Sequence record: NC_073084.1
Strand: one strand, 5' to 3'
Source: Escherichia phage vb_EcoS_bov22_1
Length of the DNA: 44,612 bases
Under the pieces are notes generated by a model. It worked only from the letters and a program-made list of their open reading frames with translations. It was not told where the DNA came from and ran no database searches. Below are positions 4,605 to 41,173 of this stretch, piece after piece. A program made the position numbers and the translations under genes. How positions within the stretch are numbered: the stretch's first letter is position 1; the number at the start of each line of letters is the position of its first letter.

Positions 4605-4666
4605 GATGTTTTCCTTTTTAGTGGAGGCGGTATTGCCCCCGACGTGATTAAGATACTGCAACCAAC

Positions 4667-5137
4667 CTATTGGTTGCAAGTAAATTTTGCAACGTTTATT
4701 GCGTAAATTTTCGGGACTAAATCGCTGCACGCCCGACGAATTGCCGCGATGTTCTTCGGGCAGTCTTCAATGATGACCAGTTCCGATACGTCCGCATAGC
4801 AGACCATTTTGAACACAGCGTACGCTTTAAACTCTGGCGGCGGGGTGTCGTCCAGCATGTGGCGCATGAACAACCGGCCTCTAGGGAATACTTCCAATTG
4901 CTCGGCTGTGGTGTCCCAGCATTCTCGCTGCCGGTTGGTCAGATACGCGATCTCGAAGCCTTGCTCTTTGTACATGGTCAGCAGCGGCAGCATATCCATG
5001 TTCAGATCTTCGCGTATATGCGCTTTGTGCCACTTCGCCCAAAAGGTGGATTTTGTTTTTATGCCCGGAACCAGGTCGGCACGCGCATCGCTTGAACCGT
5101 TAATAACGCCATCCAAATCGCAAATCAGTAATTTCAT
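4667..5137 (-). CDS. HAD-superfamily phosphatase (deoxyribonucleotidase or polynucleotide 3'-phosphatase-like)
   Basis: N-terminal LICDLDGV (DxDx[TV] HAD motif I); GAGGAG RBS 5 nt upstream of ATG 5137. Confidence 0.65.
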   Translation of the reverse strand: MKLLICDLDGVINGSSDARADLVPGIKTKSTFWAKWHKAHIREDLNMDMLPLLTMYKEQGFEIAYLTNRQRECWDTTAEQLEVFPRGRLFMRHMLDDTPPPEFKAYAVFKMVCYADVSELVIIEDCPKNIAAIRRACSDLVPKIYAINVAKFTCNQ

Positions 5138-6559: not shown

Positions 6560-6588
6560 AATATAATGCAACCAATATTATTATGCAA
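6560..6588 (-). promoter_or_regulatory. sigma70-like promoter (minus strand) overlapping two TTGGTTGCA motifs
   Basis: Minus strand reads TTGCAT-17 nt-TATATT; -35 lies inside the repeated motif. Confidence 0.4.
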
Positions 6589-6593
6589 CCAAT

Positions 6594-9501: not shown

Positions 9502-9530
9502 ACTATACCGCTATGCGACCAATTCAGCAA
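9502..9530 (-). promoter_or_regulatory. sigma70-like promoter (minus strand) overlapping motif copies
   Basis: Minus strand TTGCTG-17 nt-TATAGT upstream of the zinc-ribbon gene; embedded in the 3' end of the VRR-NUC ORF. Confidence 0.4.
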
Positions 9531-13421: not shown

Positions 13422-14844
13422 TACTTAAGTCCTCGTCGGTAGCTTCAGACCACGCAGGGCGCGGGTCGTCGATTGGTGCTAATACCGGTTTTGCCGGTGC
13501 GCGCGTGATTTTATCACACAACTTCGCCCACACTTTCGGCTTCTCGTCCTTCAATACCTTCTCGGCATCAGTAGGGCTGAGTAATGTTTCTTTGTACATA
13601 ACATCGCGCTTGATCCGGGCCTTCGTGAAGATCTCAATCACTTCGCTCTCGTCCGCCCACTTGCGGATTCCTTCCTTACCGGCAACCATCTTGAGGCCCA
13701 GCGATTCGCCATCACCCGCCATTACGGCCTTGAACACCGCGGACTCGATAGCCTTGATGTGCTGGCGCATTGCGTCAAGACCTTCATATGCCTTGCGCAG
13801 TTCCGCCGCGCTCATAGCGCCGGGGGCCGCTTCTTTCTTGCCACGCTTCGCACGTCGTGCCGCTTTGCGGGCTTCGCGGGCCATATTGCGGTCGTGATTG
13901 GCGCATTCTTCCTCTGTCGCAATACTCACGTCGTCGCCCAGGTCTTCGTCTGTTGCCGTTGGTTGGGTCATCGTGTCGATTGCGGCCTTAGCGCGGGCGC
14001 TACACTGATCCGCAAATCGGCACCACTGGCACGCATCAACGCTCGGTCGGAAGTCGGCACGGGTGAGTCCCTTTTTGCCGCGGGCGTACGCCTCCAGGGC
14101 GGCGATAGCACGCTTGGACGCAAACTTCGCGAATATCTCCAGGGCTTCTACCGAAATATCCCACTCCGACGCCCCGCCGCAATACGGCTGGAAGATAACC
14201 AGGCGCACGGTCGTGATGTCGTACATGGATTGCAGCTTGCGCAGCAGGCCGAGCGCATACAGCATAAGCTGTTTGTTTTCTTTCGCCTCGACCTTATGCC
14301 GCCCCGTCTTCAGGTCGCCAACAATCAGCATGTACGTGCCGTCGGTCTTCTTCATGACCATGACCATATCGGCAGTACCGAACGTCTTAACCCGGTTGCC
14401 GTCGATCTCGAAGCCAGAGTGTAGGACGCGGGTCAGATCGGTGCGCATCTCAAGCTGGACAAACTCCGCCACTTCGAGGAGCGGTCGCCAGTGGTCGACG
14501 TATGCGTCGCACTGTTTCACCATATCGTCGTTGACCAGTACGCCGCCTTTCGGCGCTTTCGGGTGTGCCTTTACCGGTCCCTTTCCTTCGTTCTCGACGT
14601 AGCACCCTTTGTACGTCTTCGCGGTTATCAGCTTCTCACCGGCGATAATGCGGTTTAGCACCACCTCAGATACGGTGTGCATACTCGTACCGTTAATCGC
14701 GGCTTGCCCGGATTCGTTCGGGATATCTTTTTCCACCACCAGGGCGGCTGGGCAACCCATCCATTTTTTAGCTCCGGATGGGCCGAGTAAAGAGTGTTCC
14801 GTGTTGCTACCGGATTGCGTTTTACGTTTTGGTTTAATCGTCAT
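13414..14844 (-). CDS. RecB-family PD-(D/E)xK nuclease, Cas4-like with Cys cluster
   Basis: IVGDLKTG (hhhD-x-K), QLMLYALGL (QxxxY), C-x2-C-x5-C (CQWCRFADQC); 476 aa. Confidence 0.8.
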   Translation of the reverse strand: MTIKPKRKTQSGSNTEHSLLGPSGAKKWMGCPAALVVEKDIPNESGQAAINGTSMHTVSEVVLNRIIAGEKLITAKTYKGCYVENEGKGPVKAHPKAPKGGVLVNDDMVKQCDAYVDHWRPLLEVAEFVQLEMRTDLTRVLHSGFEIDGNRVKTFGTADMVMVMKKTDGTYMLIVGDLKTGRHKVEAKENKQLMLYALGLLRKLQSMYDITTVRLVIFQPYCGGASEWDISVEALEIFAKFASKRAIAALEAYARGKKGLTRADFRPSVDACQWCRFADQCSARAKAAIDTMTQPTATDEDLGDDVSIATEEECANHDRNMAREARKAARRAKRGKKEAAPGAMSAAELRKAYEGLDAMRQHIKAIESAVFKAVMAGDGESLGLKMVAGKEGIRKWADESEVIEIFTKARIKRDVMYKETLLSPTDAEKVLKDEKPKVWAKLCDKITRAPAKPVLAPIDDPRPAWSEATDEDLSNE

Positions 14845-15851: not shown

Positions 15852-16088
15852 GGTATATCTCCGATTGGTTAAGTTTAGGTGTCGGCAGTTAACTTCGTCG
15901 GTGGCCTTAACATATTGCCAGGTTACGCGTTCTCCCGTTCGGGTAGTGGACCTGGTTATATAATCACGGTTGGGAATCCTGACACTTCGATCCGGCCCCT
16001 GCGTTGCCCCTCTCCAGTTTGCGTCCTGCATCCTGTCGACGGGGTGAATAATAGATTGGTTGCAGGATGGGTGTCAACAACTAATTTC

Positions 16089-16124
16089 AAAAAAAAAAGC
16101 GCCGAGGCAAAATGCGACGGCGCT
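16089..16124 (-). terminator. rho-independent terminator (minus strand) within the divergent control region
   Basis: Minus strand AGCGCCG-13 nt loop-CGGCGCU followed by U10. Confidence 0.4.
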
Positions 16125-16194
16125 AACCAATAAGAGACAATGAGACGGGAATTATTATTACACGCGTGCGCGCCCGTTTCAATATCCAAAGGAT

Positions 16195-16223
16195 TTGACA
16201 CCGTGCAGTTTTGGGTGTAGTTT
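16195..16223 (+). promoter_or_regulatory. sigma70-like promoter for the rightward genes
   Basis: TTGACA-17 nt-TAGTTT about 30 nt upstream of the 16255 start. Confidence 0.45.
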
Positions 16224-16254
16224 CGTTGGTCATTAACCAACTGAGGGCAGAGCA

Positions 16255-16584
16255 ATGAATGTAAACGACGCAATCGAAATGTTAACGAAGACTGTTTGCA
16301 GTGAGACAAGCCGGTCATGGGCATACACCGATGCCGTAGGGGCTGTGTTATTTGAAATCGAACGACTGCGCAGTATCGAAAAAGAATTGCGCGCCAGGCT
16401 GGAACTACTCAACGGTACAGCAGCAAGCAAGCTGCAAAAACACAATGAAGAAATGGAAGAATACAAAAAGCAGGTTATCCGTTTGCGCGCCGAGGGCAAA
16501 TCCTGGGCGATGATTGCTGAGTTGACCGGAATTAATCAGAGCACAGTTCGCTCCTGGGTACGCAATAATAAAACTTCTAAGTAA
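16255..16584 (+). CDS. helix-turn-helix DNA-binding protein (putative transcriptional regulator)
   Basis: 109 aa; C-terminal SWAMIAELTGINQSTVRSWV HTH; N-terminal coiled coil; first gene of the rightward block. Confidence 0.65.
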   Translation: MNVNDAIEMLTKTVCSETSRSWAYTDAVGAVLFEIERLRSIEKELRARLELLNGTAASKLQKHNEEMEEYKKQVIRLRAEGKSWAMIAELTGINQSTVRSWVRNNKTSK

Positions 16585-18859: not shown

Positions 18860-18904
18860 AATTTGCGCGCATTGGTTGCCGTTTTAAGTGTTTTTATCTG
18901 GTCG

Positions 18905-18933
18905 TATTGGTTGCCGTGTAGTGTAGATATAAT
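18905..18933 (+). promoter_or_regulatory. candidate promoter reading into the iteron/hairpin element
   Basis: Perfect -10 TATAAT at 18928-18933 with TTGGTT/ATTGGT 15-17 nt upstream. Confidence 0.35.
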
Positions 18934-18954: not shown

Positions 18955-19126
18955 GCATAAACTAAGCGGGACAAAAAGCGGGACAAACAAGGGGCGGGAC
19001 AAAGCGGGACAGCACCCCCGTCCCGCCCCGGATGACGCGGCTTCCAGAGGAGCGGGACAGCGGGACAGCACCCCAGTCTTTCAGACTAGACGGGGGTCAA
19101 CGGCCCCCCTCGTCTGAGACTGAATA
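18955..19126 (+). repeat. structured repeat element, copy A: GCGGGACA iterons plus GC-rich hairpins
   Basis: Six direct GCGGGACA-like copies and one inverted; 10-bp stem GGGGCGGGAC/GTCCCGCCCC; second hairpin AGACGGGGG ... CCCCCCTCGTCT; nearly identical to 36128-36301. Confidence 0.7.
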
Positions 19127-19282
19127 AAATCCGGGGATTGCAAAACACACGGCAGCATGATGCGAAGTGCGGTCGCGGATGAACTAGGCAACCAATGCTA
19201 GTAGCATTATGCTGAGTGAAAAATGCGGTTTGCAGTTGCAGCAGATAGCGATCAACTTTTTCATGCGCGTTATTAATATTGG

Positions 19283-19311
19283 TTGCATCCGCCCAGGCAC
19301 CCTGCTATATT
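19283..19311 (+). promoter_or_regulatory. sigma70-like promoter with paired TTGGTTGCA motifs
   Basis: TTGCAT-17 nt-TATATT, then GGTTGCACACCAACAGGAGG and ATG 19339; the 22-mer TATATTGGTTGCACACCAACAG recurs on the minus strand at 30323-30344. Confidence 0.45.
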
Positions 19312-19338
19312 GGTTGCACACCAACAGGAGGGCGGAAC

Positions 19339-19850: not shown

Positions 19851-20120
19851 ATGAGCCGTAGACGAGCCAAACAGCTTTCGTGGCATATTCCCCTGCATTG
19901 CATACGAATATGGGCTAAGAATGCGACTGAGGGCGATTCTGTATTATGGTGTTATCGCGATGACGTTAAGCCGTTAACGCAGACTCGCTACTTGCACCAG
20001 TTCGCAGCACAACACGATTTCAGGGTGCGGACTTCCTTGCAACCAATGGGAATACGTATTACATTACGCCGAAAGCCAGCCATTGAGCGGGTAGGCAAAC
20101 ACTGGAGACTGAGCAAATGA
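19851..20120 (+). CDS. hypothetical basic protein
   Basis: 89 aa; AAGGGG RBS. Confidence 0.55.
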   Translation: MSRRRAKQLSWHIPLHCIRIWAKNATEGDSVLWCYRDDVKPLTQTRYLHQFAAQHDFRVRTSLQPMGIRITLRRKPAIERVGKHWRLSK

Positions 20121-22476: not shown

Positions 22477-22483
22477 ACAATCA

Positions 22484-22510
22484 AGCCCGGTTAATTCCGG
22501 GCTTTTTATT
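22484..22510 (+). terminator. rho-independent terminator
   Basis: agcccgg-ttaatt-ccgggct followed by T5. Confidence 0.6.
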
Positions 22511-22571
22511 GCTTGACTCGCAACCAACACAGGGGCCATACTGCAACCAATCAACTGGAGGAGTAATCAAG

Positions 22572-29185: not shown

Positions 29186-29950
29186 TTAGCGCGGAATGCC
29201 GCAAATCTCGTTAAGTGTCTTCACATCCAGCGCCACTGCCGTGGATTTTGGCTTGTCCGGGTACGGGATGAATTGCTCGACTTCAGGCCATGCCTTAATC
29301 AGCTTCTTGTCAGTATTGTGCAGGTCCAGCACACCGGTAACGGTCAACTTGAATGCGTCATACTTCGCACGCAATTCGCGGCGGGCCTGGTCGTTACGGT
29401 CCAGGCGCTTACAGAAGTCATGGTCCGCAGGGTAATCTGCGCGACCGCGAGGGAGATATATCGGCAGCGCTTTCCCGTCCTCGTCCACTTCGCACACTGA
29501 CGCGAGCATAACTGTCTCGAACCCCGGAACGATATCGCCGAGATCAGGCGCGAGCTTATTCATATATTTCTCTTCCCAGTATCCGCGATGTACGCGGTAT
29601 CGGCGACCGTCACCGCTCAAGGACAAGGTGCGAACATTTCCGCCTGCGTTGATTTCGAAAGTGGCGTCGTAAACGCTGCCGATACCTTTCGGGCGGTCGG
29701 TGTTATAACTATATGTCGCCTTGTTGGTGTATACACAGACGCCGTACATCTGCGACTGGTCGTCGCGAATTGCCTTGATATGCTCGCGGAGCGCTGCGAA
29801 CGTGCGAATGCCTTCCGGCATACAGTCCAGCGTTATTGCGTACGCCAGATCGCGTGAGTCCATCATGATTTGTTTGGCTTCGGTTGCGATTTCGTGGTCG
29901 CGCAGGATGTTAGATAGGATCTGATTTTTAATGTCTTTTGTCAGTCTCAT
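29186..29950 (-). CDS. hypothetical protein, reverse-oriented cassette gene 2
   Basis: 254 aa; GAGGA RBS 8 nt upstream of ATG 29950; no recognisable motifs. Confidence 0.6.
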   Translation of the reverse strand: MRLTKDIKNQILSNILRDHEIATEAKQIMMDSRDLAYAITLDCMPEGIRTFAALREHIKAIRDDQSQMYGVCVYTNKATYSYNTDRPKGIGSVYDATFEINAGGNVRTLSLSGDGRRYRVHRGYWEEKYMNKLAPDLGDIVPGFETVMLASVCEVDEDGKALPIYLPRGRADYPADHDFCKRLDRNDQARRELRAKYDAFKLTVTGVLDLHNTDKKLIKAWPEVEQFIPYPDKPKSTAVALDVKTLNEICGIPR

Positions 29951-29989: not shown

Positions 29990-30304
29990 TTAGTTAAATT
30001 TGATGTTGCCGCCGGTTGAGGTTAAGCGAGCACATACAGATTCAACGGCATCGACGCACATGAAATCGTTAAAGGCTTCGACCAGGGCGTTTATGAAAGA
30101 TGCCGGAACCAGGCCGCAAGCCGGATTATCGAATGTCGCGGAGTTGACCGCCGCTTTTGCCGCTTCAGAAGCATTCATGCTCTGGCACAGATTCAGCGCT
30201 TCCGCGTTACGCATTGCGTGAAAGGTAAAGGTATTCGCTACGGTAGCTTTATTGAAACGGGCCATTGCGGCGTCTACTGGAGTTGCTACGGTCATGTTAG
30301 TCAT
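29990..30304 (-). CDS. hypothetical protein, reverse-oriented cassette gene 1
   Basis: 104 aa from ATG 30304 with AAGGAAAA RBS (the track ORF extends to 30364 without an RBS). Confidence 0.55.
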   Translation of the reverse strand: MTNMTVATPVDAAMARFNKATVANTFTFHAMRNAEALNLCQSMNASEAAKAAVNSATFDNPACGLVPASFINALVEAFNDFMCVDAVESVCARLTSTGGNIKFN

Positions 30305-30339
30305 TTTGTTTTCCTTCATATCTCTGTTGGTGTGCAACC

Positions 30340-30369
30340 AATATACTGCAACCAACATCCGCAATGCAA
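30340..30369 (-). promoter_or_regulatory. sigma70-like promoter (minus strand) for the reverse cassette
   Basis: Minus strand TTGCAT-18 nt-TATATTGGTTGCACACCAACAG, matching the promoter at 19283. Confidence 0.4.
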
Positions 30370-32416: not shown

Positions 32417-32917
32417 ATGTATGGCGACCCGCAAACCTTTGTTATTTATGCCGCTGCGCGAGGCGTTGAAATTACGCCGAGCGACGCAACGCGACACCTT
32501 ACTATCGTTAATGACTTCCTTAACGGCATAGACTGGATCGGCGAACAAGCAGACCCGACCGGAATTGACGCATGGCCCCGCGTCAACTACCCGTCAGACG
32601 GTAAGCCGGTGCGAAACACGCTTACTGAAGATTTGGCAGTAGTTCCCGCGGGGCAGATTGTAGACTTCGCATCAATCCCTGTCGCCGTTGAGCAAGCCGT
32701 TTACCGGCTGGCAATGTTGGTGGCTGACGAGGTCGATATTTCTCCTGTTGGCAGTGGTAAGGAGACTATCCGCGAGACTGTTGGCCCGATCACGATGGAA
32801 TATGACCCCGCGACGATTGGTAGCGGCGTCTCGTTCCCGTGGTGGGATGGCTTGCTGGGCCACTGGGTGAACGTAGACGGCAACGCAGCGGGTAATTTTG
32901 ACGTATTCCGGGGGTGA
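32417..32917 (+). CDS. head completion / head-tail connector protein (putative)
   Basis: 166 aa from ATG 32417 with TAGGAG RBS; call by position only. Confidence 0.45.
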   Translation: MYGDPQTFVIYAAARGVEITPSDATRHLTIVNDFLNGIDWIGEQADPTGIDAWPRVNYPSDGKPVRNTLTEDLAVVPAGQIVDFASIPVAVEQAVYRLAMLVADEVDISPVGSGKETIRETVGPITMEYDPATIGSGVSFPWWDGLLGHWVNVDGNAAGNFDVFRG

Positions 32918-32918
32918 T

Positions 32919-33089
32919 ATGAATCCTGCATTACTGGCGGCTATTATCGCCGCAAATACTAAGCACCAACCAGAACCAGAGCCGGAACCAGAACCAGAGC
33001 CGGAACCAGAGCCGGAACCAGAACCAGAGCCGGAACCAGAACCAGAGCCGGAGCCACCGGTACAGGAGGATGCTAATGGCGGGCTTTAA
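32919..33089 (+). CDS. small protein with (Pro-Glu)n dipeptide repeat
   Basis: ATG 32919 with GGGGGTGA RBS; MNPALLAAIIAANTKHQ followed by about 17 PE repeats; overlaps the next gene start. Confidence 0.45.
   Translation: MNPALLAAIIAANTKHQPEPEPEPEPEPEPEPEPEPEPEPEPEPEPPVQEDANGGL
32968..33056 (+). repeat. tandem hexanucleotide-type repeat (ccagaa/ccagag/ccggaa units) encoding the PE tract
   Basis: Direct reading: gaaccagagccggaaccagaaccagagccg repeated. Confidence 0.7.
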
Positions 33090-35233: not shown

Positions 35234-35263
35234 TTTGGTCGCTTAAATAGCGAGTGATAATAT

Positions 35264-35287
35264 GGGGCCAGCACGGCCCCTTTTTTA
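35264..35287 (+). terminator. rho-independent terminator
   Basis: ggggccagcacggcccc followed by T6. Confidence 0.65.
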
Positions 35288-35979: not shown

Positions 35980-35982
35980 TGA

Positions 35983-36120
35983 AGCGGGACAAAACGGGAT
36001 GTCCCGTTTTGTCCCACCCCACAAATGTGCATATCTAATCACTTCCATTGCATAATCTAAAAGCGGGACAATCGGGACGTCCCGTTTTGTCCCACCCCAC
36101 AAATGTGCATACCTATTCGG
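35983..36120 (+). repeat. two tandem ~79-bp units, each with a 30-bp GGGAC-based palindrome next to a promoter-like TTGTCC-17 nt-TATCTA/TACCTA
   Basis: Perfect inverted repeat gggacaaaacggga-tg-tcccgttttgtccc at 35986-36015; degenerate copy 36065-36093; each followed by accccacaaatgtgcata. Confidence 0.6.
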
Positions 36121-36127
36121 ATTTCGT

Positions 36128-36301
36128 GCATAAACTAAGCGGGACAAAAAGCGGGACAAACAAGGTGCGGGACAAAGCGGGACAGCACCCCCGTCCCAGC
36201 CAGTGCTGCCGCGGTTTTTAGCCGATCGGGACAGGCGGGACAAACCCCAGTCTTTCAGACTAGACGGGGGTCAATGGCCCCCCTCGTCTGAGACTGCATA
36301 A
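36128..36301 (+). repeat. structured repeat element, copy B (GCGGGACA iterons plus hairpins)
   Basis: About 70 nt then about 60 nt near-identical to 18955-19126, with a divergent central segment; in the second hairpin the single C/T difference falls in the loop. Confidence 0.7.
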
Positions 36302-40432: not shown

Positions 40433-41173
40433 ATGCTAACGAAGAAGGTTAAACGCGATATTGCCGCACACGTTGCGGCATGTCTGCCGGAAGAAGCCTG
40501 CGGGCTGGTCGTCATGGTGGGCCGTAAGCAAGTATTCGTCCCGTGCCTGAACGTCTTCGAAGACCCCACCGGCGCGCGCTCTCGAAAAGATGCGTTTACA
40601 ATTAGTGATATGGCCTGGATGGATGCCGAGGATATGGGCGACGTTGTGCGCGTAGTACACTCGCACCCAGGTCAGCGCGAGTTAACCCCGTCATTGGGCG
40701 ACGTTAATGGATGCAACGGCAGCGGCGTCGTCTGGACCATCACTAACGAATATGGCGACTTTATCGAGATCGACCCGGAAGACCCGCCGCTGGTAGGCCG
40801 CCGATTTGTTCTCGGGGTTACGGACTGCTACGGCCTCGTCATGGCATGGCATAAAAAGCAGGGCGTAAACCTGCCAGACTTCCGCGTACCGTATAACTGG
40901 TGGGAGACAGGCGAAAACCTGTATATGGACAATTGGTATGGCGCGGGCTTCCGGGAGTGTGAGGAGAATACGCCGGGGGCAATGGTCATCATGCAGATCA
41001 GCGCGCCAGTGCCAAACCATGCCGGAATCTACCTTCCAGGCAACCAACTACTGCACCATATCTACGGCAGCCTGTCGAGCGTCATTCCCTTCCGGGCAGG
41101 ATTTTTCCGGGACAATGTGGTTAAATGGGTACGTCATAAAGACCTACCGGGGAATATCACAGAATGGCAATGA
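40433..41173 (+). CDS. tail assembly protein K-like (MPN/JAMM plus NlpC/P60-like domains)
   Basis: EACGLV ... VHSHPGQ ... D (JAMM-like) and TDCYGLV ... H (NlpC/P60-like Cys-His); AAGGGG RBS. Confidence 0.7.
   Translation: MLTKKVKRDIAAHVAACLPEEACGLVVMVGRKQVFVPCLNVFEDPTGARSRKDAFTISDMAWMDAEDMGDVVRVVHSHPGQRELTPSLGDVNGCNGSGVVWTITNEYGDFIEIDPEDPPLVGRRFVLGVTDCYGLVMAWHKKQGVNLPDFRVPYNWWETGENLYMDNWYGAGFRECEENTPGAMVIMQISAPVPNHAGIYLPGNQLLHHIYGSLSSVIPFRAGFFRDNVVKWVRHKDLPGNITEWQ

Follow-up and report, generated by a model that had tools for sequence, protein, structure and literature searches.

The 44,612-bp genome sequence of Escherichia phage vb_EcoS_bov22_1 (NC_073084.1), hereafter the window, contains a family of short, asymmetric sequences with the consensus aTTGGTTGCa, which is concentrated in intergenic DNA, sharply defined, conserved among relatives and placed within the cores of predicted promoters. 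On balance, this sequence is probably a monomer-type operator at which a phage-encoded DNA-binding protein would occlude RNA polymerase at early and middle promoters, a reading that draws on the position of the copies and on the comparison of genomes. The window represents a nearly complete, circularly permuted Dhillonvirus genome. Gene coordinates are those of the annotation of Escherichia phage vb_EcoS_bov16_1 (MT884013.2) mapped across; between 16000 and 23000 (7 kb) the window is 100% identical to that phage, and 159 related records match.

A sharply defined intergenic motif

A preliminary description of the window had reported a 9- to 10-nt motif at 12 or more intergenic sites. All the sites it listed are present within 1-2 nt of where it had placed them, but the full length is not found at each: twelve are exact copies of the 9-mer TTGGTTGCA, seven carry an 8-mer only and 9515 is a variant. 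The twelve exact copies compare with 0.40 expected from dinucleotide shuffles (maximum 2), and lie on the minus strand at 1796-1804, 4657-4665, 6567-6575, 6584-6592, 20038-20046, 22542-22550, 30333-30341 and 30347-30355 and on the plus strand at 4670-4678, 16056-16064, 19279-19287 and 19310-19318. The 8-mer core, TTGGTTGC, occurs 20 times genome-wide (0.45 per kb), including the seven sites that have the core and not the 9-mer (9527, 13145, 13161, 18872, 18907, 19188 and 22520) and a coding copy at 41040. The latter was absent from the preliminary list, as was a one-mismatch variant, TTGGTTGA, at 1759; the variant at 9515, TTGGTCGC, also differs by one mismatch.

Sixteen of the 20 cores lie in annotated intergenic DNA, which makes up 3208 of 44612 bases (7.2%), a concentration with a binomial P of 1.9e-15. 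Two further copies straddle a gene junction and one occupies the last codons of a gene, in agreement with the earlier statement that almost all sites are intergenic or at gene ends. The core is among the two most intergenic-specific words in the genome. This intergenic-versus-coding test was put in place of a genome-wide ranking of 8-mers against dinucleotide expectation, which was dropped as a test, coding-biased words such as GCTGCCGT (29 copies) ranking equally high; the raw copy number of the core is by itself weak evidence. Rather, it is the intergenic location, sharpness and conservation of the family that set it apart from chance.

One-mismatch variants of the core are at background (~38 observed against ~41 expected), and degenerate sites were rejected as members of the family, only those at 9515 and 1759 looking functional. 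Flanking information is confined to positions -1 (A, 14/19) and +1 (A, 12/19), giving the consensus aTTGGTTGCa. The preliminary description had also proposed a protein-binding half-site. A protein-binding site fits the data, but the unit is a complete, asymmetric site of 8-10 bp with no conserved second half-site, and the two-fold symmetry of a palindromic Cro/CI operator is not found: only four of about 22 sites form inverted pairs (4657-4678, 16226-16240, 19310-19324 and 30327-30341). Among these, the pair at 4657-4678 is a perfect 9-bp inverted pair, as had been noted before, and palindromes of the form TTGGT-N5-ACCAA are present three times against about 0.04 expected by a hand estimate. 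The 22-mer that had been described as common to two promoters, TATATTGGTTGCACACCAACAG, was found at 19306-19327 (plus) and 30324-30345 (minus).

The intergenic regions of the structural genes, from 30459 to the window end, hold no copies of the core. The variant TTGGTCGC is present there at 35235-35242, in intergenic DNA just 3' of the major tail protein gene, and is kept in phage Sponge (L002 44836). It could give TTGGTC-17-TAATAT, but a terminator hairpin (35264-35280) follows almost directly.

Copies lie within predicted promoter cores

Each copy was aligned to the nearest pair of -35 and -10 hexamers. Nineteen copies (17 exact cores and the variants at 9515 and 1759) fall between -39 and +6 of 11 sigma70-like promoters, in both orientations; the hexamer arrangement at these 11 sites is TTGACA- and TATAAT-like, with 16-18 nt between the hexamers, upstream of a gene. 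Certain positions recur: -39 to -32 four times (with -38 to -31 at P16060), -34/-33 twice, -22/-21 five times and -8 to -1 five times. Relative to local transcription, 12 of the 20 cores are forward and 8 reverse, and at least 12 copies lie off the -35, some between -29 and -15 in the spacer and others between -8 and +6, over the -10 and start site. Sites that vary in position and orientation, yet stay within the footprint of RNA polymerase throughout, argue for an operator rather than a promoter element. The earlier suggestion of a phage-specific promoter class thus holds in part: the association with promoters stands, and five copies do form a -35 located 16-17 nt before a -10, but neither position nor orientation is constant. 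A role at the RNA level, as a 5' hairpin of the TTGGT...ACCAA type, was rejected, most copies lying upstream of the predicted starts.

Forward copies at -39 to -32 supply the -35 hexamer (TTGCAT or TTGCTG) at P1804, P6592, P9534 and P19283, as does that at -38 to -31 (TTGCAG) at P16060. The earlier proposal that the TTGCAT part acts as a -35 upstream of a -10 is borne out at the first four with a spacer of 17 nt, and at 16060 with one of 16 nt. In three of the four -39 promoters (6592, 9534 and 19283), a hexamer matching TATAAT at 5/6 positions lies exactly 17 nt downstream; the chance per position is 19/4096, and this placement is not plausibly an accident. Reverse copies at -34/-33 supply a TTGCAA hexamer at P4683 and at the intragenic P20037. 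Further copies lie in the spacer, at -29 to -22 (reverse, P22513), at -27 to -20 (the forward variant of P9534) and at about -22 to -15, abutting the -10 (forward at P6592, P4683 and P30369; reverse at P16077 and P13182). Others extend across the -10 and start site, between -8 and +6 (forward at P19283 and P30369; reverse at P13182, P22513 and, as a variant, P1804). The second copies of pairs have no -10 of their own, and hence do not represent tandem promoters.

P19283 (19279-19327, plus) has its -35 TTGCAT (19283-19288) inside the copy at 19279-19287, a 17-nt spacer and the -10 TATATT (19306-19311); its second copy, 19310-19318, lies at -8 to +1 and forms the TTGGT-N5-ACCAA palindrome 19310-19324. 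This predicted promoter precedes gp49 (ATG 19339) and the gp49-lysis operon; across 17 related genomes its 17-nt spacer changes in sequence, with the two copies and the -10 kept. P30369 (30324-30369, minus), which has the 22-mer in common with P19283, combines TTGCAT (30369-30364), an 18-nt spacer and TATATT (30345-30340) with copies in the spacer (30355-30347, -22 to -14) and at -8 to +1 (30341-30333), and is the predicted promoter of the leftward genes at 29990-30304 and of the Nmad5 gene (29186-29950).

Three further minus-strand promoters take their -35 from the motif. At P6592 (6560-6592), the copy 6592-6584 gives TTGCAT, followed by a 17-nt spacer and TATATT (6565-6560), and a second copy (6575-6567) in the spacer adjoins the -10. 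At P9534 (9502-9534), the copy 9534-9527 gives TTGCTG, 17 nt before TATAGT (9507-9502), with the variant TTGGTCGC (9522-9515) in the spacer; this predicted promoter lies inside the last codons of the VRR-NUC gene, ahead of gp35. At P1804 (1759-1804), predicted to serve a lipoprotein (superinfection-exclusion-like) gene, the copy 1804-1796 gives TTGCAT, 17 nt before AATACT (1777-1772), and the reverse variant TCAACCAA (1766-1759) lies at -1 to +6. The promoter-like P4683 (4650-4679, minus), at the gp28/gp27 junction, takes TTGCAA from its reverse copy, and its forward copy adjoins the -10 TATCTT (4655-4650). The two form the perfect inverted pair TGCAACCAA-ccta-TTGGTTGCA (4657-4678), a palindrome that is invariant while its flanks vary.

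P16077, P13182 and P22513 were found independently by a consensus scan, have near-consensus -35 boxes (TTGACA, TTGACC and TTGACT) unrelated to the motif, and account for the copies in apparently wrong orientation to the flanking genes. P16077 (16048-16087, minus) is the leftward promoter of the divergent early control point; TTGACA (16077-16072), an 18-nt spacer and TATTAT (16053-16048) match the consensus at 11 of 12 positions. The copy 16056-16064 lies reversed in its spacer, at -22 to -15, and also yields the weak rightward P16060 (TTGCAG, 16-nt spacer, TAATTT). P13182 (13145-13182, minus; TTGACC, 17-nt spacer, TAAATT) lies upstream of an Enc34-type SSB gene and contains two reverse copies, 13168-13161 (-21 to -14) and 13152-13145 (-5 to +2). 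P22513 (22513-22550, plus; TTGACT, 18-nt spacer, CATACT) follows a terminator (22483-22504) and carries reverse copies just past its -35 (22520-22527) and just past its -10 (22543-22550). Downstream of it are a small unannotated open reading frame (ORF), the phosphoesterase gene and the terminase genes.

The remaining copies have less distinct surroundings. Two forward copies, 18872-18879 and 18907-18914, lie upstream of a perfect TATAAT (18928-18933) with no recognisable -35 (18872-18933, plus), just before a repeat element of a second motif, GCGGGACA; in phage Sponge the counterpart has three copies. An isolated reverse copy (19188-19195, minus), conserved in relatives, is located between that element and P19283. 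P20037 (20037-20065, plus), a possible weak internal promoter, lies in the gp51 coding sequence, where the minus-strand copy 20038-20046 gives plus-strand TTGCAA, followed by a 17-nt spacer and TACATT; it is conserved in Sponge. The copy in a tail-assembly gene (41040-41047, minus) has no promoter context and is probably fortuitous or constrained by the protein code.

The ORF downstream of P22513 (22572-22652, plus) has 26 codons and encodes MARKDIWVLAIWTTAAFIGMVICELI; it is without annotation in MT884013.2 and is preceded by the ribosome-binding site GGAGGAG. Its product is hydrophobic and kept in relatives, and phage CHD5UKE2 has an annotated small gene at the equivalent place (14152-14295).

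Conservation and specificity of the motif

The phages bov16_1, Sponge, CHD5UKE2 and Teewinot have 20-21 copies each, in the same places and with the same pair spacings, and the spacing of pairs is kept across genomes although the flanks diverge. In alignments of up to 17 relatives, 97.6% of cells in motif columns match the window base and 84% of the columns are invariant, compared with 91.3% and 69% for other intergenic columns (Mann-Whitney P = 1.4e-5).

The family appears to be specific to this group. Core copies number 0 in GRNsp27, 3 in Hrm2 and 8 in T1 (7 of these in coding DNA), and an intergenic family was not found in any of the three. A 100-kb sample of E. coli K-12 contains 4 copies, all coding, a density of about 0.04 per kb, compared with 0.45 per kb for the phage genome. 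The motif is therefore not equally frequent in coding DNA, given that the 7.2% of intergenic sequence holds 16 of the 20 copies, nor in this sample of host DNA, the two comparisons that the preliminary description had named as a check.

A scan of IMG/VR for paired motifs (TTGGTTGCA-N3-30-TTGGTTGCA) was set aside: among at least 120 loci, the densest were mostly tandem repeats of 9, 21 or 27 nt that are likely coding, and few were Dhillonviruses. One unrelated viral contig (IMG/VR 3300038463_000167; L044 2754-3174) has 12 irregularly spaced copies of TTGGTTGC in 420 bp, a cluster that looks like the iteron type. In the distantly related Escherichia phage Hrm2 (L021 41128), one intergenic promoter-like site, TTGGTTGCTT-17-TATACT, precedes a gene annotated 'excisionase/transcriptional regulator', probably a coincidence.

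A candidate binding protein

The most likely binder of the TTGGTTGC motif, on the circumstantial evidence of domain content and gene position, is a protein of 109 amino acids encoded at 16255-16584 (plus), the first rightward gene of the divergent early region. Genes between ~550 and 15851 are leftward (replication, recombination and methylases), and a 400-bp divergent control region (15852-16254) lies between them and the rightward block, which begins at 16255 with the candidate gene and continues with helicase-primase, small genes, lysis, phosphoesterase, terminase and structural genes.

Among 30 small or unassigned proteins scanned against Pfam, this product alone has a detectable DNA-binding domain. 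Its matches above gathering thresholds are to the helix-turn-helix (HTH) families HTH_23 (2.3e-7) and HTH_28 (1.6e-6) and to Sigma70_r4_2 (2.2e-6; 27.7 against 25.7 bits). An AlphaFold2 model (pLDDT 85) comprises a short N-terminal helix, a 59-residue helix and a C-terminal HTH (helices 84-91 and 95-107). Foldseek returned local matches to generic LuxR, GerE, resolvase, IS-transposase and sigma4 HTH folds (probability 0.9-0.99, E > 0.6), and sequence and fold searches of the PDB gave generic HTH and coiled-coil matches only. The database labels 'resolvase/transposase/Gam' are unsupported: no catalytic resolvase or DDE domain was matched, and HTH_7 and HTH_Tnp_1 fell below threshold. The 'transcriptional regulator' of phage AV129 was also rejected as the binder, its label sitting on a homologue of the calcineurin-like phosphoesterase, which is not a DNA-binding protein.

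Across 21 cluster representatives, almost no variation is seen in residues 47-106, which contain the recognition helix IN(Q/V)STVRSW; taken over all allelic types, this helix is retained as IN(Q/V/R)STVRSW. The protein family is confined to Dhillonvirus-like contigs; like the intergenic motif family, it is missing from GRNsp27, Hrm2 and T1. The CHD5UKE2 version has 150 residues, an unrelated 90-residue N-terminus and the helix INRSTIRQW, and all 20 sites are still present in that phage. The protein is probably a dimer able to bridge paired sites. Its own gene has a proximal promoter-like sequence (16195-16240, plus) with TTGACA (16195-16200), a 17-nt spacer and TAGTTT (16218-16223). The palindrome TTGGTcattaACCAA (16226-16240), which has the TTGGT-N5-ACCAA architecture also present at 19310 and 30327, covers the predicted start, and this suggests that the gene may be autoregulated.

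Among relatives, the first 45 residues of the HTH protein are hypervariable and fall into several unrelated types. Shuffling of domains could account for this, as could diversifying selection on a surface that binds a partner.

The control region 15852-16254 is almost invariant in 13 distinct relatives, above the flanking coding DNA, and includes a leader of ~190 nt between P16077 and ATG 15851; its conservation suggests further regulatory or RNA-structural content. On the minus strand at 16089-16182 lies a candidate RNA of ~58 nt with the promoter TTGAAA-17-AATAAT (16182-16154, with TG) and a strong hairpin GCGCCG…CGGCGC followed by T10 (16123-16089; minimum free energy -17 kcal/mol, z = -2.8). 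It contains the near-motif ATTGGTTAGC and would be an antisense RNA for any transcript that runs rightward from 16060.

Proposed role and alternative explanations

In the proposed mechanism, the phage protein would bind one or two copies at nearly all early and middle promoters of the sigma70 type, within the promoter core (-39 to +6). Its targets would be the leftward replication and recombination operons, the divergent early control region with the strongest leftward early promoter, and the gp49-lysis operon, together with the promoter before the phosphoesterase and terminase genes, the gene of the superinfection-exclusion lipoprotein and the Nmad5 operon. At each target, host RNA polymerase would find the -35, the spacer, or the -10 and start site covered and would have to compete with the bound protein; where a site overlaps the -35, the TTGCA(T) of the motif would double as the hexamer. 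The outcome may be a Cro-like global turn-down of, or feedback on, early and middle transcription in a virulent phage. We infer repression from the positions of the copies alone; for the class fixed at -39, activation or a double function would also fit.

Several considerations weigh against this proposal. The promoters were called by consensus only, the scanner's total of promoter-like sites was not above that of shuffled controls, and 8 of the 11 promoters were placed with hand-chosen hexamers, some of them part of the motif itself. The copies at 18872, 18907 and 19188 match no clear promoter, the five copies at fixed positions between -39 and -31 would equally suit an activator or a -35 surrogate, and the pair spacings (12, 14, 16, 17, 23, 31 and 35 bp) are without helical phasing, which would be unusual for a cooperative dimer. 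The protein and the motif are both invariant within a single genus, which makes their link circumstantial, and other small proteins of unknown fold could bind instead. Furthermore, no transcription study or start-site data for any Dhillonvirus were found in the literature searched.

A positive promoter element is the strongest alternative to an operator, unlikely but a serious contender. The motif could be an extended -35, an activator or -35-surrogate box of the T4 MotA kind, or the target of one protein that activates at -39 to -32 and represses elsewhere. The five forward copies at a fixed -39/-38 to -32/-31 do combine a weak -35 (TTGCAT, 3/6 matches) with a good -10, promoters with reverse spacer copies own strong -35 boxes, an arrangement that would fit a switch from early to middle transcription, and the candidate protein scores above the Pfam threshold for Sigma70_r4_2, a domain that reads -35 elements. 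This match is, however, one of several equivalent generic HTH matches, Foldseek likewise giving only generic ones (E > 0.6), and no MotA, AsiA or sigma-region-2 homologue was found among the 30 small proteins scanned against Pfam. Moreover, in three of the four -39 to -32 promoters the spacer or start site holds another copy, at which a bound protein should obstruct RNA polymerase; in the fourth, P1804, there is just the reverse variant with one mismatch (-1 to +6). At least 12 copies lie off the -35, and 8 are reversed. A specific version, in which the 109-residue sigma-region-4-like protein acts as a single-protein temporal switch that turns early promoters off and middle promoters on, appears distinctly doubtful. 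In such a switch, binding in the spacer or start site of the consensus early promoters (16077, 13182 and 22513) would shut them off, and binding at -39 to -32 would replace or stabilise sigma70 region 4 at a weak -35 and so activate 1804, 6592, 9534 and 19283; the hypervariable N-terminal 45 residues would then form a diversifying interface whose partner might be, for instance, RNA polymerase or a defence sensor of the host.

Recruitment of a host transcription factor or nucleoid protein of E. coli is quite improbable. Three sites form TTGGT-N5-ACCAA palindromes, and the ATTGGT of the motif resembles what we take to be the half-site of a PdhR/GntR-type box, ATTGGT-N3-ACCAAT. The spacing is nevertheless 5 nt and not 3, TTGGT-N3-ACCAA sites number 0, most sites lack a second half-site, and the invariant TTGC is foreign to such boxes. 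The 4 copies in 100 kb of K-12 include 0 intergenic ones, the coliphages T1 and Hrm2 are without the intergenic family, and we know of no E. coli factor with an aTTGGTTGCa consensus. We consider it very improbable that the sites serve replication or primase-helicase loading, mark recombination boundaries for module exchange, or act as packaging signals or methylation targets. They do lie where gene modules meet, three copies border the GCGGGACA repeat region, which the SO-1 record labels as direct, inverted and palindromic repeats similar to 'region A', and the adjacent HTH gene carries the annotation 'transposase/resolvase'. Under none of these roles, though, would copies be expected to keep base-precise positions relative to the -35 and -10 hexamers, as they do at 11 sites; the 'transposase' has no catalytic domain, the sites are dispersed, unlike clustered iterons or pac sites, and the second GCGGGACA region (35980-36300) has no motif copy. 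As for chance or compositional artefact, several coding-biased 8-mers are equally over-represented against dinucleotide expectation, and T1 has its 8 copies without apparent reason. The intergenic concentration (P~2e-15) and the paired copies, with spacing kept across genomes while flanks diverge, make this explanation practically negligible.

Comparison with known regulatory systems

The closest functional analogues of the proposed operator family appear to be the operator and stoperator network of L5 gp71 and the early turn-down of the Cro and Ner type. In mycobacteriophage L5, gp71 recognizes an asymmetric 13-bp operator, and Cluster A phages have about 30 such 'stoperator' sites. Both systems share a short asymmetric site present in tens of copies in short intergenic regions, which contains the -35 hexamer at the main early promoter, and a non-palindromic site read by an HTH protein, here only a candidate; the likeness is a functional one. 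In contrast, L5 is temperate and gp71 is its immunity repressor, whereas no integrase, repressor or cI-like gene is annotated in the present phage and no prophage copies of it were found in 5426 E. coli genomes; its lifestyle is virulent. The L5 stoperators all face the same way with respect to transcription and affect elongation, whereas the sites here (12 forward, 8 reverse) lie on promoter cores.

As with lambda Cro at OR/OL and Mu Ner, the first gene to the right of divergent early promoters codes for a small HTH protein, with replication genes next, and lytic turn-down of early promoters is predicted via sites overlapping the -35, -10 and start site. Cro sites, however, are 17-bp pseudo-palindromes at two operators, in contrast to an asymmetric unit at about 11 promoters genome-wide, and the candidate combines a coiled coil with a C-terminal LuxR/resolvase-like HTH instead of the Cro fold. 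The T4 MotA box is likewise a 9-bp phage box that replaces the -35 upstream of a normal sigma70 -10, and five copies here lie at about -39 to -31. MotA boxes, though, keep one position (centred near -30) and one orientation, whereas most copies here lie elsewhere or are reversed; no Pfam matches to MotA_activ or AsiA were found among the 30 small proteins.

In the actinophage phiC31, conserved inverted repeats are bound by the c repressor. These resemble the present family, for which binding of a repressor is proposed, as a multi-copy motif across early intergenic regions, and differ in being 17-bp inverted repeats of a temperate phage instead of asymmetric sites of a virulent coliphage. DnaA boxes, too, are asymmetric 9-mers bound by a single HTH domain, with variable orientation and spacing and some of them over promoters; their sequence is different, the phage has no origin-like array, and the placement strictly on promoter cores speaks for control of transcription.

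Multi-copy operator regulons are a well-known feature of phages, and such a motif is not surprising in principle; no description of this one, or of Dhillonvirus promoters, was found in the literature searched. The motif is real, sharp and testable, and belongs to a widely used group: Dhillonviruses are among the commonest virulent coliphages, with more than 150 genomes in the phage collection searched and several in the BASEL reference set. A 10-bp site on essentially every predicted early or middle promoter would provide a map of transcription units together with a single candidate regulator, of use in rational engineering (promoter choice and payload timing) and in reading defence-system and transcriptome experiments with these phages. 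It also opens the question of an L5- or Cro-like global operator network in a virulent phage without lysogeny.

Other repeated sequences in the window

The second intergenic motif, GCGGGACA(A/G), has 14 of its 15 copies in intergenic DNA (P~1e-15), clustered at 18955-19125 and 35980-36300. Both regions share a duplicated element of ~170 bp (…gcataaactaaGCGGGACAaaaaGCGGGACA…ccccagtctttcagactagacgggggtcaa.ggcccccctcgtctgagactg), with TGCATAA repeats nearby. No Rfam family was matched at gathering thresholds anywhere in the window, these regions included. In the Sodalis phage SO-1 record the GCGGGACA regions are labelled 'region A' and 'region B' (direct, inverted and palindromic repeats), and they could represent an origin, a non-coding RNA or a protein-binding array. 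Lastly, the tandem CCAGAGCCGGAACCAGAA repeats of 32960-33060, which the annotation places between genes, are most likely the coding sequence of a Pro-Glu repeat, either in an ORF at 32898-33089 or in an upstream extension of the gene at 33076.

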